Shown in pieces: positions 3,116 through 11,523 of a DNA stretch of 24,000 nt. The stretch is from Nitrososphaerota archaeon. GTDB taxonomy: Archaea > Thermoproteota > Nitrososphaeria_A > Caldarchaeales > JAVZCJ01. Every line of letters starts with the position of its first letter. Positions within the stretch are counted from its first letter, which is position 1. Made by a program: the position numbers and the translations under genes. The DNA lies in NCBI GenBank assembly GCA_038874475.1, contig JAVZCJ010000004.1, positions 105,493 through 129,492 on the forward strand, in the 5' to 3' direction. The notes under the pieces are model-generated. The model saw only the letters and a list, made by a program, of their open reading frames with translations, was not told the DNA's origin and did no database searches.

Positions 3116-3352
3116 TTAAAAATATATAAAATAAAATTTTATAATTATGGTTATTCCAGTTAAGTAAGCATTTGCTTTTTTTTCAAAATTATTAGTTGTT
3201 GCCCAAAATGCAGAAATAAGATTAAACCAATAAAAAAGGGAATATTTAAGAAGTGCCCTATACGTGGATGCACATGGTATGATAGTGAAGGTGAAGGAGG
3301 GGAAAAGTAGAATATTTATCATATTAGGAATATGTTTAGAATGTTGATACAA
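3116..3352 (-). CDS. hypothetical small membrane protein (uncertain)
   Basis: A 78-codon ORF lies alone in an otherwise empty intergenic gap and has 2-3 hydrophobic segments. No recognisable motif. An ORF this long is unusual by chance in such AT-rich DNA, but there is no other support. Confidence 0.3.
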   Translation of the reverse strand: MYQHSKHIPNMINILLFPSFTFTIIPCASTYRALLKYSLFYWFNLISAFWATTNNFEKKANAYLTGITIIIKFYFIYF

Positions 3353-3375
3353 TAAATTTAATTGGAGAAAAGCAT

Positions 3376-4071
3376 ATGAAAGATAAAATCATTCTTTCTT
3401 GGAGCGGGGGCAAAGATAGCGCCTTTTCTTTATATAAAATTATGAATGAAAATGAATTAGAATGTGTAGGATTATTAACAACATTTACTAAAGAATATGA
3501 TAGAGTTACTATGCATGGTGTAAGACGTTCATTAATAGAAAAGCAAGCGTCTTTACTTAATATTCCATTAGATATAGTTTATATTCCAAAAAATTGTTCA
3601 ATGGAAGAATATGGTACAATAATGAGAAATGTTTTAAGAAAATATAAAGAGAAAGGAATAAAAGGATTTGTTTTTGGTGATATTTTCCTTGAAGATGTAA
3701 GAAGCTATAGAGAGAAAATGCTTTTTTATGAAGGATTTAAAGGATATTTTCCACTTTGGGGAGAAGATACTAGAGAATTAGTTCTACAATTTATTAGGCT
3801 AGGTTTTAAAGCTATTATAACTTGCGTAGATGAGGAGGTTCTTAGTTCATCATGTGTAGGAAGAGAATTGAATGAAAATTTTCTAAAAGAAATCCCACCT
3901 AATATTGATCCTGCTGGTGAAAATGGAGAATACCATTGCTTTGTGTATGATGGCCCATTATTTAGTGAACCCATAAATATAAAAATTGGAGAAATAGTAA
4001 AACAAAACGTACAAGGAAAAACATTTTATTATTGTGACATTTTTCTTGAAGATGAATATTATAGTTATTAA
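3376..4071 (+). CDS. PP-loop ATP pyrophosphatase, Dph6/MJ0570 family (putative diphthine-ammonia ligase)
   Basis: N-terminal PP-loop SWSGGKDS. The C-terminal GENGEYHCFVYDGPLF block is characteristic of the COG2102/Dph6-type family. GGAG lies 9 nt upstream of the ATG. Confidence 0.7.
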   Translation: MKDKIILSWSGGKDSAFSLYKIMNENELECVGLLTTFTKEYDRVTMHGVRRSLIEKQASLLNIPLDIVYIPKNCSMEEYGTIMRNVLRKYKEKGIKGFVFGDIFLEDVRSYREKMLFYEGFKGYFPLWGEDTRELVLQFIRLGFKAIITCVDEEVLSSSCVGRELNENFLKEIPPNIDPAGENGEYHCFVYDGPLFSEPINIKIGEIVKQNVQGKTFYYCDIFLEDEYYSY

Positions 4072-4368
4072 TTTAGAAGATCACCAAAAAATTTTTGATT
4101 TCAATATTTATTAAATTTATTTCTACAAATTTATAAGAGAGATATTATAGAAAAAAGAGCCTTAAAATTTAATAATCATGAAAAATTAAATATCTCTTAA
4201 TTATTTCTTTATTTATTTTTTTAAAAATTTTGTAGAGTAGCTGAAGTTTAAAAAAATTAATAATTATTGAAAGCTGGTCTATCACTAGTTTTAAAATCTG
4301 GTCTACGGCATTATTTACAATTTTTAATGAAAAAATTAATAAGACTCTTTTTTTTAATAATTATTCTA

Positions 4369-4443
<75 letters not shown>

Positions 4444-4891
4444 TAATGTTTATATGAAATACTTTATTTCTTAAAAATAAATTTTCTATCAAATAAAGAT
4501 TCTTTTTTATGAAATCAAGCTAAAAGTAGTAAGTATGAACTATTAAATAAGTTTATATTTTTTTAGAATATTTCTAATCATACTAAATATGCTGGGAGAG
4601 AAAAGTAGAAAGAGAGAGAATTGGGATTTAATCGCACAAAATACTAAAAGAGAATTTTCTCATATTTTTATGTAGCGTCCAATTATTACTTATTTCTATT
4701 TTTAAATTCTTTTAATTCTTCTAAATTTCTTAATCATCTTTCTTATCTTGTTTATTTCATTATATTTTTAAACTAATTGTTCCTTCTAATCTGGTAAAGC
4801 TTCTTATTGCCAATTTCTACTATTCAAGATTTGCAGCAAAAACTTTTATGCAATATTCTTTCTTACCTTCTTGCTCTTCAAATATTTTTAT

Positions 4892-4956: not shown

Positions 4957-5574
4957 ATGAAGAAAGAAGAAAAAATACTTAGAGAAATTTTAATTGGAAT
5001 AAAAGAAGGAAAAGAAACTTTTTTTCAAAAAGAAATATCTGAAAAATGCAATGTTTCTATAGGCTTAGTTAATAAAGTTATAAAAAAACTAGAATTACAA
5101 AATTCTTTACAAAGGAAAAATAAAGGATTTTCTATTATAGATCCTAGCAAAATTTTATTATACTGGGCAATAAAAAGACAAATTAAAAAAGAAATAAATG
5201 AAAAATATTATATTAAGAGCACAATTGAAACAATTGAAAAAACCTTGCCTGCTTGTGCTATATTTACCGCATTTTCTGCTTGGAAGCTTTTAACTGGAAG
5301 AGTTCCAGCAGATTATAGAGAAGTTTACATTTATGTTCCTAAAAAAGAAGAAAAAATGATTAAACTATGGTTAAAAGAAAATAAAATATTCAAAGGGCCT
5401 GAAAACCTTTTTATAATTTATATTAATGATGAACATTTGATAAAAAATTCAAAGAAAAACATAGCACCATTACCACAAATATTTGTAGATTTATATTCAA
5501 TTGGTGGAATAAGTAGTAAGTATTTTTTAAAAGATATTCTTGAAACAAATCCTGAATTTAAATTTGAGGTATGA
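4957..5574 (+). CDS. winged-helix DNA-binding protein, AbiEi-antitoxin-like
   Basis: N-terminal HTH-like segment FQKEISEKCNVSIGLVNKVIKKLE. The C-terminal part (IFTAFSAWKLLTGRVPADYREVYIYVP ... APLPQIFVDLYSIGG) resembles the AbiEi/COG5340 C-terminal domain pattern. The stop overlaps the next gene's start by 4 bp (ATGA). Confidence 0.5.
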   Translation: MKKEEKILREILIGIKEGKETFFQKEISEKCNVSIGLVNKVIKKLELQNSLQRKNKGFSIIDPSKILLYWAIKRQIKKEINEKYYIKSTIETIEKTLPACAIFTAFSAWKLLTGRVPADYREVYIYVPKKEEKMIKLWLKENKIFKGPENLFIIYINDEHLIKNSKKNIAPLPQIFVDLYSIGGISSKYFLKDILETNPEFKFEV

Positions 5575-6218
5575 ATATGGAATTATGGAATGAAAAAGCT
5601 ATAGAAAAAAGTGAAAGAATATTAAATGAATTGAAGAAAATTTCAGATTTTGTTTTGGTTGGCGGATGGGCAGTTTTTTTATGGACAAAAGCTATAAAAT
5701 CTATAGATATTGATATTTATATGAATTTTGAAAATTTTTATAAAATCCAATCGATTTTAATTGAAAAAGGAATTTTCATTAATTTTAATCCAAAGCTTAA
5801 AAAATATAGCACAAAAATTGAAGAAGTAGATATTGATATTTATACTCCTGATCAATGTGGATTGGTAATACCATGTAAAGATGTTTTCAAAAATAAATGG
5901 TTTGAAACAATAGGAAGGTTTAAAGTTTTAAAAGCAGAACCTTTAATGTTACTTAAACTTGATGCTGAAAGTAAAAGGTCAAGTACCATAAAAGGATTTA
6001 AAGATAGATGTGATATTCTTGCCTTAATTACAAAATTGGATTTGGATACAAATTTTCTTAATTATTTATTCAAAAAATATAATGCTTTTACTCTTAAAAA
6101 AAGGCTAATAAAAATTGTGAAAGATTCTTCAGAAGAATATAAATATGCATTACAAAAAACAATCATTCCAAGCAAGCTTAAGAAATTAAAGAAAGAAATT
6201 ATTTCAAAGATAAGTTAA
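5571..6218 (+). CDS. minimal Pol-beta-fold nucleotidyltransferase, AbiEii-toxin-like
   Basis: VLVGGWAVFLWTKAIKSIDIDIY fits the hG[GS]-x(9-13)-Dh[DE]h NTase signature. A second acidic block, VDIDIYTP, lies downstream. The gene is translationally coupled to the wHTH gene. Its last 80 bp are repeated at 9949..10028. Confidence 0.5.
   Translation: MNMELWNEKAIEKSERILNELKKISDFVLVGGWAVFLWTKAIKSIDIDIYMNFENFYKIQSILIEKGIFINFNPKLKKYSTKIEEVDIDIYTPDQCGLVIPCKDVFKNKWFETIGRFKVLKAEPLMLLKLDAESKRSSTIKGFKDRCDILALITKLDLDTNFLNYLFKKYNAFTLKKRLIKIVKDSSEEYKYALQKTIIPSKLKKLKKEIISKIS
6139..6218 (+). repeat. 80-bp direct repeat, copy 1 (3' end of the NTase CDS including its stop codon)
   Basis: A base-by-base comparison with 9949..10028 shows 80/80 identity. 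Mismatches occur immediately outside both ends. Confidence 0.95.
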
Positions 6219-6520: not shown

Positions 6521-6634
6521 TGCGGAGGGTGGGATTTGAACCCACGAGACCCCTATGGGATTCTCCATATTCTTCCGGAGCCTCACTCCGGGAAATTCTG
6601 TCCGGCGCTCTTGACCAAGCTAAGCGACCTCCGC
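6521..6634 (-). tRNA. tRNA-Leu (anticodon GAG), class II, with two predicted 14-nt introns (6586..6599 and 6561..6574)
   Basis: The minus strand reads GCGGAGG-U-C-GCUU-AGCUUGGUCAA-GAGC-G-CCGGA-C[AGAAUUUCCCGGAG]UGAGGC-UCCGG[AAGAAUAUGGAGAA]UCCCAUAGGGGUCUC-GUGGG-UUCAAAU-CCCAC-CCUCCGC-A. The Leu-type D-loop and long variable arm (CCC-AUA-GGG) are present. Removing the two bracketed segments yields a perfect anticodon arm with loop CUGAGGC. Confidence 0.8.
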
Positions 6635-6785
6635 AATACCAATTTTATTTTTAGTAGTTAGATGTATATATTTTTAATAATCTTTAAAAATAATATGGCA
6701 ATTAATAAATTTTTAAATAAAACCATCAATAATAAAATTTCTTAAAATAAAAAAATTTATTAACATTAATATAATCGCTAATAAT

Positions 6786-6859
6786 GGGCTGGTAGATCAG
6801 TCTGGAAGATCGCCCCGCTCGCACCGGGGAGGTCGCGCGTTCAAATCGCGCCCAGTCCA
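6786..6859 (+). tRNA. tRNA-Ala (anticodon CGC), no intron
   Basis: GGGCUGG-UA-GAUC-AGUCUGGAA-GAUC-G-CCCCG-CUCGCAC-CGGGG-AGGUC-GCGCG-UUCAAAU-CGCGC-CCAGUCC-A. The G3:U70 alanine identity pair is present. Confidence 0.92.
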
Positions 6860-6987
6860 TAAAATTTTTCACTCTTAAAAATTATCATTTAAGTAATGAA
6901 GTATTATCTATTTTTAAACTATTTTTTTCTATATTAAACTTAAGGAAATTTTTTAAAAACATTAATCAATATCTGTTTAATAGATGG

Positions 6988-7351
6988 TTGATTATAGGTC
7001 ATACTATTGCTAAAATTAAGATTTATAATCCTAAATACGAATCTCTAAGCTTAGAGCTTGAATTGTTAGTTGATACTGGTTCAACTTATACTTGGATTGC
7101 ATTTGAAAAACTTATAAAATTTAAAGTTAAACGATTAGGAGGAGTTTCAAAACTCTAGATAATAGAATTATTAAACGTGATATTGGCGAAGTAATAATTG
7201 AATATTTAGGTAGAAGAGCTATAACAATAGTAGTTTTGCTGAGAAAGAAGATAATGAAGTTTTAGGATTACATGCTTTAGAAGATTTAAGACTTGAGGTA
7301 GATCCAATAACGAAACAACTTAAAGGATCCGAAGCAATATTAACACTATAA
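6988..7351 (+). pseudogene. retropepsin-like (clan AA) aspartic protease, disrupted by two frameshifts
   Basis: Three consecutive frames together give (M)IIGHTIAKIKIYNPKYESLSLELELLVDTGSTYTWIAFEKLIKFKVK / TIRRSFKTLDNRIIKRDIGEVIIEYLGRRAITIVV / FAEKEDNEVLGLHALEDLRLEVDPITKQLKGSEAILTL*. The catalytic DTGS motif and the overall layout match small archaeal single-domain aspartic proteases. The shifts lie near 7128..7135 and in the T4 run at 7234..7237. Confidence 0.6.
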
Positions 7352-7629
7352 TTGAATTATAAACTGTATAATTTTTATTTCTTTTCTAATCTTTCTCTAA
7401 AATTTTTTATCTTTTGGAAGTGAAATAAATACACGACTTTCACTAATTCATTAACAAACATAGTAACATTATATTTACCAGCAATTATTAGAAATTGAAT
7501 TTTGATATTAAGCTTTTTTCATTTATTCTATCAACTTAATACGATTAATTAATTTTTCATCATGTCTTGTTTTTTAACTATTATAAAAAACTTATATTAT
7601 ACGTAGATAAATGAATTTTTTAATATATA

Positions 7630-7677
7630 GGCGATGAAGCTCGCCTTTAACCGCCCTTGCTTCAATATTGCGAGGGC
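7630..7677 (+). other. GC-rich double hairpin upstream of, or overlapping, the start of the toroid-protein gene
   Basis: Hairpin 1 is ggcga(7630..7634)/tcgcc(7641..7645) with a 6-nt loop. Hairpin 2 is gcccttgc(7653..7660)/gcgagggc(7670..7677), 8 bp including one G-U, with a 9-nt loop. It is preceded by the strong TATA-like ttttttaatatata (7616..7629). Function is unknown. Confidence 0.4.
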
Positions 7678-8597
7678 TGATAGCTTCTACCAATTTAAAT
7701 AAGAAAGGGTGGAATGCTATATTGCATGAAGCAGGGCGAATTTCCCCATGGACTCAAATTAAAAGCTTTGATAAACGATCATCTATTCAATCAAGAGTTA
7801 AAGCTATTATAAATTATATAATTAATAGACAAAATGATGATGGAGGATATGCTTTTTGTAAAGGCACAGACTCAAATGCTCAAGATACTTATTATGGATT
7901 AGCAATATTAAAATTATTAAAAGCTCCTTTTCCAAATTTACAAAAAACAATTAATTGGTTAAATAATTTTGTTCCAGACAATCTTTATTCATATTTTTAT
8001 ATAGCTAAATCTTTAAAATTATGTGATCAAGAAATAAATAAGAATCTTAAGAATTTCCTCCTTTCTCTTGAAGTTTCTAATGAAGGATTTGGAACATTAG
8101 ATGTTTATGTAGAAGTCTCTTCAGAATTTGAAGCTACATTTATGATTACTGAACTTATAAATATGTTAAATCTTAAAATCAATAATGAGAAAATAATTAA
8201 ATGGTTATTAAAATATCAAAATAATGATGGCGGATTTGGAGCTCATGAATATTCAAACTTAAGTTCAACTTATCATGCTATAGCTTCCCTTTTCAATCTT
8301 GGTTATCCTATTAAATCTCTTACTAAAACTCTTGAATATGTTAGGTCTTGTGAAAAACCCTCAGGAGGTTTTACTGTAGTACCAGATATTTCTAAACCAT
8401 ACATGGAACATACATATTATGGAACAATGATTATTGATTTATTTGGTGAAAATTTAAAATACCCTGAAAATACTTCTCAATTTGTTTTAAATTGTCAAAA
8501 TTCAAATGGTGGATTTGCAAGATCTGAATTTGGAATATCAACTTTTGAAGATACTTTCTATGCTGTTAATATATTAAGAAAAATTGGCAAGATATAA
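7668..8597 (+). CDS. alpha/alpha-toroid protein with prenyltransferase/squalene-cyclase-type repeats
   Basis: Six helical-hairpin repeats, four with the classic motif: NRQNDDGGYAF..DTYYGLAILKLL, KYQNNDGGFGA..STYHAIASLFNLG, CEKPSGGFTV..HTYYGTMIIDLFG, CQNSNGGFAR..DTFYAVNILRKIG. There is no in-frame ATG near the 5' end. Candidate starts are TTG 7668 (inside hairpin 2) or TTG 7722, which has GGGTGG 9 nt upstream and seems more plausible. Confidence 0.7.
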   Translation: MRGLIASTNLNKKGWNAILHEAGRISPWTQIKSFDKRSSIQSRVKAIINYIINRQNDDGGYAFCKGTDSNAQDTYYGLAILKLLKAPFPNLQKTINWLNNFVPDNLYSYFYIAKSLKLCDQEINKNLKNFLLSLEVSNEGFGTLDVYVEVSSEFEATFMITELINMLNLKINNEKIIKWLLKYQNNDGGFGAHEYSNLSSTYHAIASLFNLGYPIKSLTKTLEYVRSCEKPSGGFTVVPDISKPYMEHTYYGTMIIDLFGENLKYPENTSQFVLNCQNSNGGFARSEFGISTFEDTFYAVNILRKIGKI

Positions 8598-8606
8598 AAG
8601 GCGAAG

Positions 8607-9392
8607 ATGATGATTAAAAAAGACGCATTAACAATAACAATTTTTGAAAGTATTAAAAAATCAGATATATGCCCATTATGTTATCTTTGGTTAAAAAACG
8701 AAGAACGCTATATGAATTATCTTCTTACAAATGAAGTAGTAATGAGCCCTGAATTTGGAGAGAAAGTTTTAGTTGCTAAAGGATTTTGTAATCGTCACAT
8801 GCATTTATTATATAAAACTGCTTATGGAGGGCATACTGAAAATGGTTTAGGATATGCTCTTTATATGCAAAAAGTTATTGAAGAAATTTATAAAGATTTT
8901 GAAATATTGCTTAATAATTTAAATAAACTTAAGAATTTAGAAAGCAATATTTTTAATAAAAAAAGAAAACAAAAGGAAATTTCATTATTATATAATAAGA
9001 TTATGCTTGCAATTAAAGGAAGGAAAAAATGTCCAGCATGCGAACATTTAGAATCAATGGATAGTATATACATACATACTTTAATTCGAATGTTAAATGA
9101 TAAAAATTTTAGAGAAGAATTTAAATCATCAAATGGTCTTTGCCTCCCTCATTTTTCTTCTATTATTAAAATGATTAATCAAAGCAAAATTAAGAACCCA
9201 ATTATTATAATTCAAACACTTTTTGAAGCAGAAAATAAACAAATTCAATTGATAAAAAATTATCTTTCAGAATTTATAAGGAAGCATAGTTGGGATTTTA
9301 GAAATGAAGCTTTTGGACCTGAAGCTAATGTAAATTATATGATTTTAAACATATTAACAGGTGTAGAAAGTCTCTATTTATTGAAACTATAA
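8607..9392 (+). CDS. uncharacterised protein with two CxxC...CxxH modules (putative zinc-binding)
   Basis: A 261-aa ORF starts 10 bp after the toroid gene, so the two are probably co-transcribed. Module 1 is CPLC(22-25)...GFCNRH. Module 2 is CPAC(152-155)...GLCLPH. The C-terminal part reads KHSWDFRNEAFGPE. No catalytic motif was recognised. Confidence 0.6.
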   Translation: MMIKKDALTITIFESIKKSDICPLCYLWLKNEERYMNYLLTNEVVMSPEFGEKVLVAKGFCNRHMHLLYKTAYGGHTENGLGYALYMQKVIEEIYKDFEILLNNLNKLKNLESNIFNKKRKQKEISLLYNKIMLAIKGRKKCPACEHLESMDSIYIHTLIRMLNDKNFREEFKSSNGLCLPHFSSIIKMINQSKIKNPIIIIQTLFEAENKQIQLIKNYLSEFIRKHSWDFRNEAFGPEANVNYMILNILTGVESLYLLKL

Positions 9393-9418
9393 ATTTTTAT
9401 CATTTAAAAAATGCATTG

Positions 9419-9814
9419 TTAAAAATTATTCTTTATTTCTAAAATTAATTTTTGTCCTTTATGATCATATACTGCAACATTTCTTTCATCTATAAATGGA
9501 AAACTAACAATCATAAGTATACTCCCAAAGAAATGGTTTAAATCCATTGCAGAAGGATTTAAATTTCCAGAGGGATGAGAGTGTACTGTTCCAATAATAG
9601 AAAAATCTATTGACAGCATATGAAGTGGAATACTAGCGAATCCCCAACCATAAGTTGCAAGCGGAGGAACAATTAATTCAGTAATATTGATCAAATTCTT
9701 ATTTTTCTTACCTCTAAGAAATAAAATCATTTCTTTTGGATAAATTTGTTTTGCACTTTCAAAAATTGCTTGTAATAATTCTTTATTGATTGAAATTATT
9801 ACGCTGCTTTTCAT
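9419..9814 (-). CDS. JAMM/MPN+ metalloprotease (archaeal stand-alone JAB domain)
   Basis: The complete JAMM signature is present: an upstream Glu (PKEMILFLRG), then GTVHSHPSGNLNPSAMD, which matches HxH-x7-S-xx-D. The 131-aa size is typical of archaeal AfJAMM/HvJAMM1-like proteins. Confidence 0.8.
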   Translation of the reverse strand: MKSSVIISINKELLQAIFESAKQIYPKEMILFLRGKKNKNLINITELIVPPLATYGWGFASIPLHMLSIDFSIIGTVHSHPSGNLNPSAMDLNHFFGSILMIVSFPFIDERNVAVYDHKGQKLILEIKNNF

Positions 9815-9948
9815 AATATCTAAAATTAGAAACTTATATTTTAATATTTTAAAAAATAGATTATTAATCTAAGATAAATTTTTTACTTTAACAATTTTTA
9901 TAAAAAATATATGGTGTGTTTTACATGTGATCATATTATTGAAATAAG

Positions 9949-10028
9949 ATAAATATGCATTACAAAAAACAATCATTCCAAGCAAGCTTAAGAAATTAAA
10001 GAAAGAAATTATTTCAAAGATAAGTTAA
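9949..10028 (+). repeat. 80-bp direct repeat, copy 2 (orphan 3' fragment of the NTase gene)
   Basis: Identical to 6139..6218. The reading frame is closed by TAA at 9945..9947, so this copy is non-coding. A weaker resemblance to the NTase gene (aaaaaatata...ttttac) may extend about 45 bp further upstream. Confidence 0.95.
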
Positions 10029-10072: not shown

Positions 10073-10876
10073 TTATTCTTTTTCTTTAAAAGGATTAATA
10101 TCATTAATGAATTTTCTAATAACATCTAAAGCATTATTTATCCATTCTATAATCAATTCCCCAATACTTACAATTAAATCTAAAATTTCCCTTCCAACAT
10201 CAATAATTGTATCTACAAATTTTTTACCAATATCTATAATTGCTTCTAATATGCTTTTTCCAACATTAACAATCGTATTTCCAATGCTTATAATAGCATC
10301 TCCTATTTTTTCAAGAGGGTTTTTCTCTTGTTTAATACTTGAATTTATTAAAGATGTAGTTGAAGTGGTTATCGTAGTTTTTATTTCACTTTCGATTGTA
10401 GTTTCTTCTTTTATTTCTATTTTTCTATAATATGCAATAATTTCTCCATAATTATTTTGAACTATCAAATAATTATATGACGAGTTTTGTGAATAACTTA
10501 ATTTCCCTCCAATTATTTCCCAATGATCAAATTCATATCCTTCTTCTGGCTTATATTCTATACGGTATCTTTCATTTTTTGATAATTCTATATAACTTGG
10601 TAAAGGATAATTCTTATTATCAATACGTATAATCCCTTCATTTTCAGATTTATTATTTACACATATCGATTTTAATTCAAATACATTATGTATAGCAATT
10701 CCGGTTTCAAAAGAAAAACATTCATTTTGTTTAATATTTTTTATTAAAAGAGAATTTACATTTATTATTAATTGTGAAGTAATAATATCAAATAATATAA
10801 TAATCAATAAAATGGAAATTATATTTTTAAATATTCTATTCTCTAAGCATAAGTGATACATAGTATTCTCCTCCAT
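10073..10876 (-). CDS. membrane-anchored surface protein: N-terminal TM, beta-rich GYxFxxW domain, Thr/Ser linker, C-terminal hendecad-repeat tail
   Basis: TM segment IFKNIISILLIIILFDIITSQLII. The domain block YRIEYKPEEGYEFDHWEIIGG..IIAYY resembles bacterial/archaeal surface-repeat domains. The linker is KTTITTSTTSLINSS. The tail is an 11-residue periodic I-x-x-[IV]-G array. Alternative start at ATG 10861. The gene overlaps the upstream pilin-like gene by 26-41 nt. Confidence 0.6.
   Translation of the reverse strand: MEENTMYHLCLENRIFKNIISILLIIILFDIITSQLIINVNSLLIKNIKQNECFSFETGIAIHNVFELKSICVNNKSENEGIIRIDNKNYPLPSYIELSKNERYRIEYKPEEGYEFDHWEIIGGKLSYSQNSSYNYLIVQNNYGEIIAYYRKIEIKEETTIESEIKTTITTSTTSLINSSIKQEKNPLEKIGDAIISIGNTIVNVGKSILEAIIDIGKKFVDTIIDVGREILDLIVSIGELIIEWINNALDVIRKFINDINPFKEKE
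10097..10309 (-). repeat. coding tandem periodicity (7/11-residue repeats, 33-bp period) in the tail of the surface protein
   Basis: KIGDAIISIGNTIVNVGKSILEAIIDIGKKFVDTIIDVGREILDLIVSIGELIIEWINNALDVIRKFINDI. Conserved Gly residues are spaced 7, 7, 11, 11, 11 residues apart. The hendecad consensus is x-[IF]-[LVI]-[DE]-x-I-[IV]-[DS]-[IV]-G-x. Confidence 0.7.
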
Positions 10877-11354
10877 CTAAAGTATAAATTGTGATGTATA
10901 TTCTTTGACCAATAGAAGCTGCATATGGTGGAATCCCTATTCCAACCCCTCCAATTTCTCCAGGTTCTATAGGAATGAATGTTTTATCGTTTAAAGGATC
11001 TAATTCTTCGAATGTTTTTGCACTACCTACATCTACAGTTGTTTCAGGTGCAAAATCTTTAAACGACTTACCATTTATTGCTACATTGCATACTTTTACA
11101 GTTTCTTTTCCAATATTTTTAAATTCAATAATTATAAAGAAATAATCATCAAATGTTTTTTTACTAAAAACATAAGTAATTTCCATTTTTTTAGCATTCA
11201 TATATTTTTCAGTTGTACTAGAAATCCATGCAACAATGACTATTGTAATAATAATGCATATTGCAATTAAAATTATTGTAGTTTTTATTATACTTATTCC
11301 TTTTTTATTTTTATACATATTTTCTCTTTTTATCAAATTATTAACTTTTTTCAT
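10836..11354 (-). CDS. archaeal type IV pilin-like protein (class III signal peptide)
   Basis: N-terminus ..MYKNKKG|ISIIKTTIILIAICIIITIVIVAW matches the [KR]G|(I/A/Q)S + hydrophobic helix pattern processed by prepilin peptidase. The globular part contains FKNIGKETVKVCNVAING, typical of archaeal pilin-domain proteins. The true start may be the internal Met (MYKNKKG) at 11318. Confidence 0.6.
   Translation of the reverse strand: MKKVNNLIKRENMYKNKKGISIIKTTIILIAICIIITIVIVAWISSTTEKYMNAKKMEITYVFSKKTFDDYFFIIIEFKNIGKETVKVCNVAINGKSFKDFAPETTVDVGSAKTFEELDPLNDKTFIPIEPGEIGGVGIGIPPYAASIGQRIYITIYTLDGGEYYVSLMLRE

Positions 11355-11387: not shown

Positions 11388-11523
<136 letters not shown>

Follow-up and report, generated by a model that had tools for sequence, protein, structure and literature searches.

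A fluoride riboswitch precedes a gene pair for a prenyltransferase-like toroid and a DUF6062 protein, probably a non-export part of the archaeal fluoride response

The DNA analyzed here, called the window below, is a stretch of 24,000 nucleotides from a Nitrososphaerota archaeon (GenBank assembly GCA_038874475.1, contig JAVZCJ010000004.1, positions 105,493 to 129,492), and the subject of this work is a cassette of two genes with a structured leader. The source genome measures 1.92 Mb and is 97.5% complete, and the G+C content of the window is about 26%. An earlier note on this DNA had described two adjacent open reading frames (ORFs) of 309 and 261 amino acids (aa) preceded by a GC-rich double hairpin. 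Both ORFs are open and conserved. The first, at 7668-8597 (+), has 309 aa when read from TTG and codes for an alpha/alpha toroid, and the second, at 8607-9392 (+), codes for a 261-aa protein of the family DUF6062. They are co-directional and separated by 10 nucleotides (nt), and the toroid gene is present in one copy in the source genome. The structure ahead of them is also real; what the earlier note had missed is its identity, a fluoride riboswitch. We put the probability that the pair is regulated by this riboswitch and belongs to the fluoride regulon, as an operon of a non-export response, at roughly three in four. The toroid and the DUF6062 protein probably belong to the response of archaea to fluoride, as a part not described before that works without export.

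The leader of the toroid gene is a fluoride riboswitch of the crcB motif (Rfam RF01734), and its identity is established. The aptamer at 7621-7696 (+) exceeds the gathering score of 34 with 53.1 bits (E = 2.7e-12), covers the model from position 1 to 64 of 64, and is the only RF01734 match in the source genome. Helix P1 is formed by 7630-7633 with 7642-7645 and helix P3 by 7653-7656 with 7674-7677, and the pseudoknot joins GAAGC (7636-7640) to GCUUC (7683-7687). In an alignment of 75 riboswitch copies, 98.3% of the cells were paired, compared with 31-53% in slid controls. The pseudoknot, which had been left out of the covariance model used to collect the copies, was 100% paired and contained 16 double changes, namely AU to GC in 10 sequences and CG to UA in 6 sequences.

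The position of the aptamer also bears on the gene model of the toroid. The codon TTG 7668, from which the longest ORF was read, is part of the aptamer itself. The stretch RGLIAST in that reading is the riboswitch's conserved 3' tail in translated form. The toroid homologues begin with MHEVGRF and the identical cluster representative has 291 aa, and so the true start is probably TTG 7722, which lies 9 nt after the Shine-Dalgarno sequence GGGUGG and gives a toroid of 291 aa (7722-8597, +). The ORF of the earlier gene model was thus retained, but its start was moved.

The same leader is predicted to act as a switch. The minimum-free-energy fold of 7621-7760 has -46.4 kcal/mol (z = -3.65), and none of 200 shuffles was equally stable. 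In it, the 3' tail of the aptamer, AUAGCUUCUACC (7680-7691), pairs with GGUGGAAUGCUAU (7708-7720) over the Shine-Dalgarno sequence (7707-7712), and UGAAGCAGGGC, just past the start codon, is paired with the 5' strand of P3. The tail can form either the pseudoknot with GAAGC or the helix over the Shine-Dalgarno sequence, and these are mutually exclusive, suggesting the logic of a translational ON-switch, with a predicted expression platform at 7680-7720 (+). Without fluoride, the tail would pair with the region around the toroid gene's Shine-Dalgarno sequence; with the Mg-fluoride complex bound, it would be captured in the pseudoknot, the ribosome-binding site would be freed, and both closely spaced genes would be translated. 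Similar pairing of the tail with downstream sequence, often GGUGG or AGUGG, was found in the minimum-free-energy folds of 43 of 66 other toroid leaders. The leader resembles those of the known fluoride riboswitch regulon in its aptamer (P1, P3 and pseudoknot), its 5' position and its proposed ON-switch logic, whereas control is predicted here at translation, through masking of the Shine-Dalgarno sequence, and not through a terminator. With the toroid loci, dozens of natural archaeal examples of fluoride riboswitches with apparently translational control become available.

The linkage of riboswitch and toroid is conserved well beyond the window, and this is established from 80 species-level loci collected with a toroid profile, 78 of which have testable upstream sequence. 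They were searched with our own covariance model built from Rfam-validated copies. A riboswitch was found on the coding strand in 69 of the 80 loci, and in about 66 of the 78 testable ones (about 85%) it ends within about 200 nt of the toroid gene, directly upstream and on the same strand. When a sample of toroid leaders was tested again with Rfam, 20 of 20 exceeded the cut-off at the same coordinates. Most of the loci are from Bathyarchaeia, and the others are assigned to Archaeoglobi, Methanosuratincola, Methanocellales, Brockarchaeota, Freyarchaeota, Jordarchaeia and Thermococci, assignments in which binning errors are possible.

DUF6062 is the most frequent partner of the toroid. The earlier note had staked its two-gene module on the synteny of the two families in other genomes, and DUF6062 does adjoin the toroid, directly downstream, in 38 of the 80 loci; in 32 of these 38 the distance from the toroid stop to the predicted DUF6062 start is between -14 and +20 nt. 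What held of that module was its synteny and its uncharacterized function, but the pairing is frequent only and not obligate. The pair also occurs without a riboswitch (loci L006, L008, L010, L019 and L020) and in reversed order (L120), suggesting that the two genes are linked functionally and not by regulation alone. With the filters switched off, a search still detected no hidden riboswitch at the Rfam-negative archaeal loci, whether these held DUF6062 only or toroid and DUF6062 without a switch. Conversely, each of the two genes is also found behind fluoride riboswitches without the other. An open frame of 582 aa in genome G305 that resembled a toroid-DUF6062 fusion was rejected as high-GC read-through, the toroid there being a separate ORF of 320 aa.

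Other genes occupy similar positions. In 7 loci, a Pfam-less family of about 218 aa with the motifs PAYRCFDINLG and GRVNNVEV takes the place of DUF6062 directly downstream of the toroid (L100, L102, L103, L106, L107, L111 and L112, at about 3830-4500 in each), and a relative of this family lies upstream of the toroid in L118. Small Pfam-less coiled-coil proteins are encoded downstream of the toroid-DUF6062 pair in 15 of the 80 loci, for example at 4974-5429 in L072.

DUF6062 is tied to fluoride riboswitches in its own right. Among 20 loci collected with a DUF6062 profile, 7 have Rfam-significant fluoride riboswitches upstream on the same strand. The riboswitches number eight, since the Nitrospirota locus has two. 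The order riboswitch, toroid, DUF6062 is found in Bathyarchaeia and in the window's own genus, while riboswitches upstream of DUF6062 without a toroid occur in Archaeoglobi, where they are directly upstream, and in Nitrospirota, Ignavibacteria, Thermomicrobiales and Rubrobacter. One Archaeoglobi contig (L014) has two divergent DUF6062 genes, each with its own fluoride riboswitch, at 3309-3381 (-) and 3799-3874 (+). The genes next to toroid-less DUF6062, between it and the riboswitch, are classic members of the regulon and code for CLC, Na+/H+ antiporter, universal stress protein (USP), CrcB, DUF190 and a dynamin-like GTPase.

The neighbors of the toroid point to the same regulon. One MFS_1 subfamily recurs in 15 toroid loci, CrcB in 10 and DUF190 in 9, some of them behind a second riboswitch; NUDIX genes occur in 9 loci, and a dynamin-like GTPase and a pyrophosphatase in single cases. 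Second fluoride riboswitches in toroid loci of Bathyarchaeia (L056 5182-5259, L051 5221-5298, L062 5149-5226 and L083 4481-4566) stand directly before CrcB-DUF190 or an MFS gene, so that these loci contain two separately switched units. It might be argued that fluoride is only an environmental cue, for example of acidic or geothermal water, and that, rather than handling the chemistry of fluoride, the pair would remodel or protect the isoprenoid membrane or the proteome as a whole, with the toroid binding an isoprenoid lipid. This would agree with the prenyltransferase-beta fold that the toroid retains, with the conserved aromatic residues at the starts of its inner helices, and with the dynamin-like, membrane-remodelling GTPase that partners DUF6062 in bacteria. 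However, the link between riboswitch and toroid is very tight, toroid loci also hold CrcB and DUF190, and no lipid-biosynthesis genes recur near the toroid in the 80 loci. The first two of these observations suggest a dedicated fluoride function, and we consider a mere cue distinctly unlikely. We propose that Thermoproteota and a few other archaea use the toroid as a protein dedicated to the fluoride response.

The known exporters were also compared with the toroid across genomes. No match to CrcB (CRCB) or CLC (Voltage_CLC) was found in the source genome, and neither cassette protein matches these two families. The toroid is present in 60 of 401 genomes of a phylum sample, with a patchy distribution. 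Both exporter families are absent from most of the toroid-bearing genomes (41/60) and from 161 of the 341 others, a modest difference that is confounded by phylogeny and is given as a description. CrcB was found in none of 61 relatives from the window's order. Within the window's class, the toroid is limited to 2 of 3 genomes of its own genus and to 4 of 10 genomes of one other genus, whose toroid is divergent and lacks a riboswitch; a riboswitch over the Rfam cut-off was found in this class in the window's genus only, in the same proportion (2/3).

Several observations weigh against the assignment of the cassette to a non-export fluoride response. About half of the sampled phylum (202/401) has neither CrcB nor CLC, so their absence here is not special. 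An MFS homologue with 40% identity to the fluoride-linked MFS subfamily is encoded elsewhere in the source genome (G000:C3:56149-57303, or L121 1489-2676), and it might be an unrecognized fluoride exporter. This gene has no riboswitch, and a second MFS gene follows it. Only 43 of the 66 leaders show the helix that would mask the Shine-Dalgarno sequence in their minimum-free-energy fold. DUF6062 is missing from about half of the toroid loci, and several of the close archaeal copies of its gene have no toroid and no riboswitch. Finally, the toroid might be listed in the supplementary gene list of Baker et al. (2012). No paper linking the toroid to fluoride was found in a literature search that excluded this list.

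Known fluoride resistance consists of two exporter families, supported by a few overproduced enzymes. Reviews state that further determinants exist whose identities are not established. A toroid family preceded by a fluoride riboswitch in about 85% of the examined species is a concrete, testable candidate for a determinant of the non-export kind. The genes named as associated with fluoride riboswitches code for exporters, Na+/H+ antiporters, pyrophosphatase, HAD, enolase, formate hydrogen lyase, chorismate mutase and mutS (Weinberg 2010, PMC2864571; PMC11139923). Loci related to that of the window hold classic members of this regulon (CrcB, DUF190, Na+/H+ antiporter, CLC and pyrophosphatase), but the toroid and DUF6062 are not among the genes named in these two papers, and the genome of the window lacks either known exporter family. 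The riboswitch class was thus already known, and the effector proteins are new. The linkage gives a first physiological context to two uncharacterized families, a toroid like a prenyltransferase without its zinc, and DUF6062, a fold without a solved relative.

The toroid protein matches Pfam Prenyltrans (PF00432) with E = 4e-28 and 99 bits (cut-off, 26.5), and its matches to squalene-cyclase, ribophorin-II and TED toroids in Pfam and NCBIfam are all below threshold. The AlphaFold2 model has 12 helices arranged in six hairpins, with a predicted local distance difference test (pLDDT) of 87 and a predicted template modelling (pTM) score of 0.85. The nearest folds in the PDB found by Foldseek are the beta subunits of RabGGTase and GGTase-III (E about 2e-8, template modelling score up to 0.73), and a PDB profile match to prenyltransferase beta reached E = 1.7e-14. 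The family comprises 177 clusters at 50% identity (E up to 1e-30). The Pfam match and the model bear out the six-hairpin toroid of the prenyltransferase-beta type that had been read from the sequence earlier.

The toroid nevertheless departs from these enzymes at the active site. In a profile alignment, N179, S181 and H230 stand where RabGGTase beta binds zinc through D238, C240 and H290, and S181 is N in most homologues. By this alignment the catalytic zinc triad is lost, two of its three ligands being replaced and the histidine kept. Compared with protein prenyltransferase beta subunits (RabGGTase, GGTase-III and FTase beta; 1ltx_B, 6o60_B and 1ft1_B), the protein has in common the six-hairpin toroid and the GGF-type repeats, but it is shorter (291 aa), has Asn and Ser/Asn in place of the Asp and Cys ligands with only the His kept, and is encoded in a prokaryotic host under riboswitch control without an alpha subunit. 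No match to the alpha subunit family PPTA (PF01239) was found in the source genome. The alpha/alpha toroid fold is also common to class II terpene cyclases and LanC-like proteins, and weak squalene-hopene cyclase domain matches and lower-ranked Foldseek matches were obtained. However, the toroid-family alignment has no conserved DxDD motif, and all cyclase scores are far under their cut-offs (34 bits against 322.7 for TIGR01787). The toroid likewise has no match to the LanC family (LANC_like) at E up to 0.1 and lacks the Cys-Cys-His zinc site of LanC-like proteins. The loss of the catalytic motifs is thus established, and the absence of an alpha subunit, a terpene synthase motif and a LanC zinc triad, claimed in the earlier note, held in the genome, profile and motif tests.

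A system for the modification of peptides or proteins, of the prenyltransferase, LanC or ribosomally synthesized and post-translationally modified peptide (RiPP) type and guided by a zinc protein, had been suggested for this cassette. Both the prenyltransferase-beta fold and the Cys/His-rich partner gene would suit such a system. It does not accord with the replaced zinc ligands (N179 and S181), with a genome that lacks the alpha subunit, with the lack of LanC or terpene-synthase matches, or with riboswitch control, which indicates ion stress. No matches to defense or RiPP families were obtained. Small ORFs or peptide substrates had been named as something to look for, and no conserved small ORF that could code for a precursor peptide was found in or beside the operon or among its recurrent neighbors. 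The suggestion was therefore abandoned, and a modification system now seems very improbable. Instead of prenyl transfer, the most likely task of the toroid is to serve as a ring that binds a ligand or provides a scaffold.

The family has conserved features of its own. Each GGF loop is followed, where an inner helix begins, by invariant residues specific to the family, which make up a polar and acidic set (D55, E131, S134, S178, N179, T183, E229, H230, S273 and E276) above conserved aromatics. When the alignment was compared with the secondary structure, the aromatics were likewise located where the inner helices begin (Y57, Y58, Y93, Y184, Y232, Y233 and F279). By analogy with prenyltransferases, this set may form the mouth of the central cavity of the toroid.

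The second protein matches Pfam DUF6062 (PF19538) with E = 1e-30 and 107 bits against a cut-off of 27. It had been left without any assignment, and although its function is indeed uncharacterized, the family is catalogued. The two CxxC...CxxH modules and the conserved tail described earlier are borne out across 19 homologues, in which the residues C22, C25, C61, N62, H64 and H66, then C142, P143, C145, C179 and H182, and lastly W229 and E239 of the tail are invariant. The AlphaFold2 model is all-helical (pLDDT 85.3, pTM 0.78), and each CxxC and CxxH stands at the N-terminus of a helix. This position, together with the motif, suggests that zinc may be bound at the two Cys3His-type sites. No solved relative was found in the PDB, either by fold (best E = 0.43) or by sequence, and no paper mentioning DUF6062 was found in the literature search. 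The window's copy has the twin CxxC...CxxH architecture in common with the Pfam family; it is archaeal and has the toroid as its partner. DUF6062 is most likely a helical partner of the toroid with structural zinc, and the two proteins may form a physical complex.

These features allow some suggestions about how the pair might work. The two soluble, cytoplasmic proteins would act in a branch of the fluoride-stress response that does not export the ion, and the role of the cassette would be protective. Our leading guess, a weak one, is that a ligand is captured in the cavity of the toroid and that DUF6062 serves as its zinc-stabilized partner. In a more specific form, the toroid, with or without DUF6062, would be an intracellular fluoride-tolerance protein that captures fluoride or a metal-fluoride complex, or protects a fluoride-sensitive target, and that stands in for the exporters in the many Thermoproteota without CrcB or CLC. 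The capture site might then be a polar and acidic crown of D55, E131, E135, N179, E229, H230 and E276. We regard this form as tentative and rather unlikely.

The genomic setting of the cassette raises the question of its origin. As described before, the pair lies inside a repeat-bracketed segment: a direct repeat of 86 nt with 98% identity (6133-6218 and 9943-10028) flanks 3.8 kb that hold the cassette. The repeat duplicates the 3' end of the nucleotidyltransferase gene at 5571-6218, and the bracket looks like an integration scar, with no integrase seen for the segment. In the phylum sample, the toroid of the window is closest to toroids of other families. The patchy distribution, these closest relatives and the repeat bracket together suggest that the cassette was likely acquired horizontally. 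The pair could accordingly be viewed as cargo of a mobile element, such as a defense or addiction module, whose association with a riboswitch is incidental. The bracketing repeat that copies the end of the upstream gene, the closeness of the toroid to those of other families, and the restriction of the riboswitch within the class to the window's genus, the toroid of the other genus being divergent and switchless, would all fit this view. On the other hand, the riboswitch-toroid unit is chromosomal in dozens of genomes, where it stands beside housekeeping genes, and horizontal acquisition is compatible with a fluoride response. A defense system was searched for with PADLOC, which matched neither cassette protein. 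Incidental cargo is thus hardly probable at all, and the fluoride-response operon remains the preferred reading of the cassette.

Signals at the ends of the cassette were read from the sequence, scans for sigma-70 promoters and bacterial-type terminators being not applicable to an archaeon. A putative archaeal TATA-like box (cttatatta) lies at 7591-7599 (+), about 25 nt upstream of the aptamer start, and a T5 run right after the DUF6062 stop codon (9393-9400, +) is a possible archaeal terminator. The JAB gene at 9419-9814 is convergent with the cassette and ends at 9419. It was considered as a third member and rejected, as it lies on the opposite strand and is not recurrent in the 80 toroid loci.

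The bracketed segment contains two tRNA genes, a decayed protease gene, the riboswitch cassette and the JAB gene. The protease gene at 6988-7350 (+) is a frameshifted gene for a retropepsin-like aspartic protease, with the motif LVDTGST in an ORF of 56 aa (6988-7158) and the remainder in other frames. In a sister species of the same genus (G002, contig 21; L007 / L013), frameshifts interrupt the DUF6062 gene and JAB has decayed. The two membrane-protein genes that the window has at 10073-11354 are absent from that site, and the cassette directly adjoins the genes for tRNA and Trm5. Four tRNA genes are present in the window, at 6521-6634 (-), 11390-11523 (-), 6785-6860 (+) and 4369-4443 (+). 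Those on the minus strand, of 114 and 134 nt, were detected by Rfam only and missed by ARAGORN, which fits archaeal introns. Upstream of the segment, a winged-helix gene (4957-5574) overlaps the nucleotidyltransferase gene, of the DUF6036 or aminoglycoside type, on the same (+) strand, and the two may constitute a toxin-antitoxin-like module.

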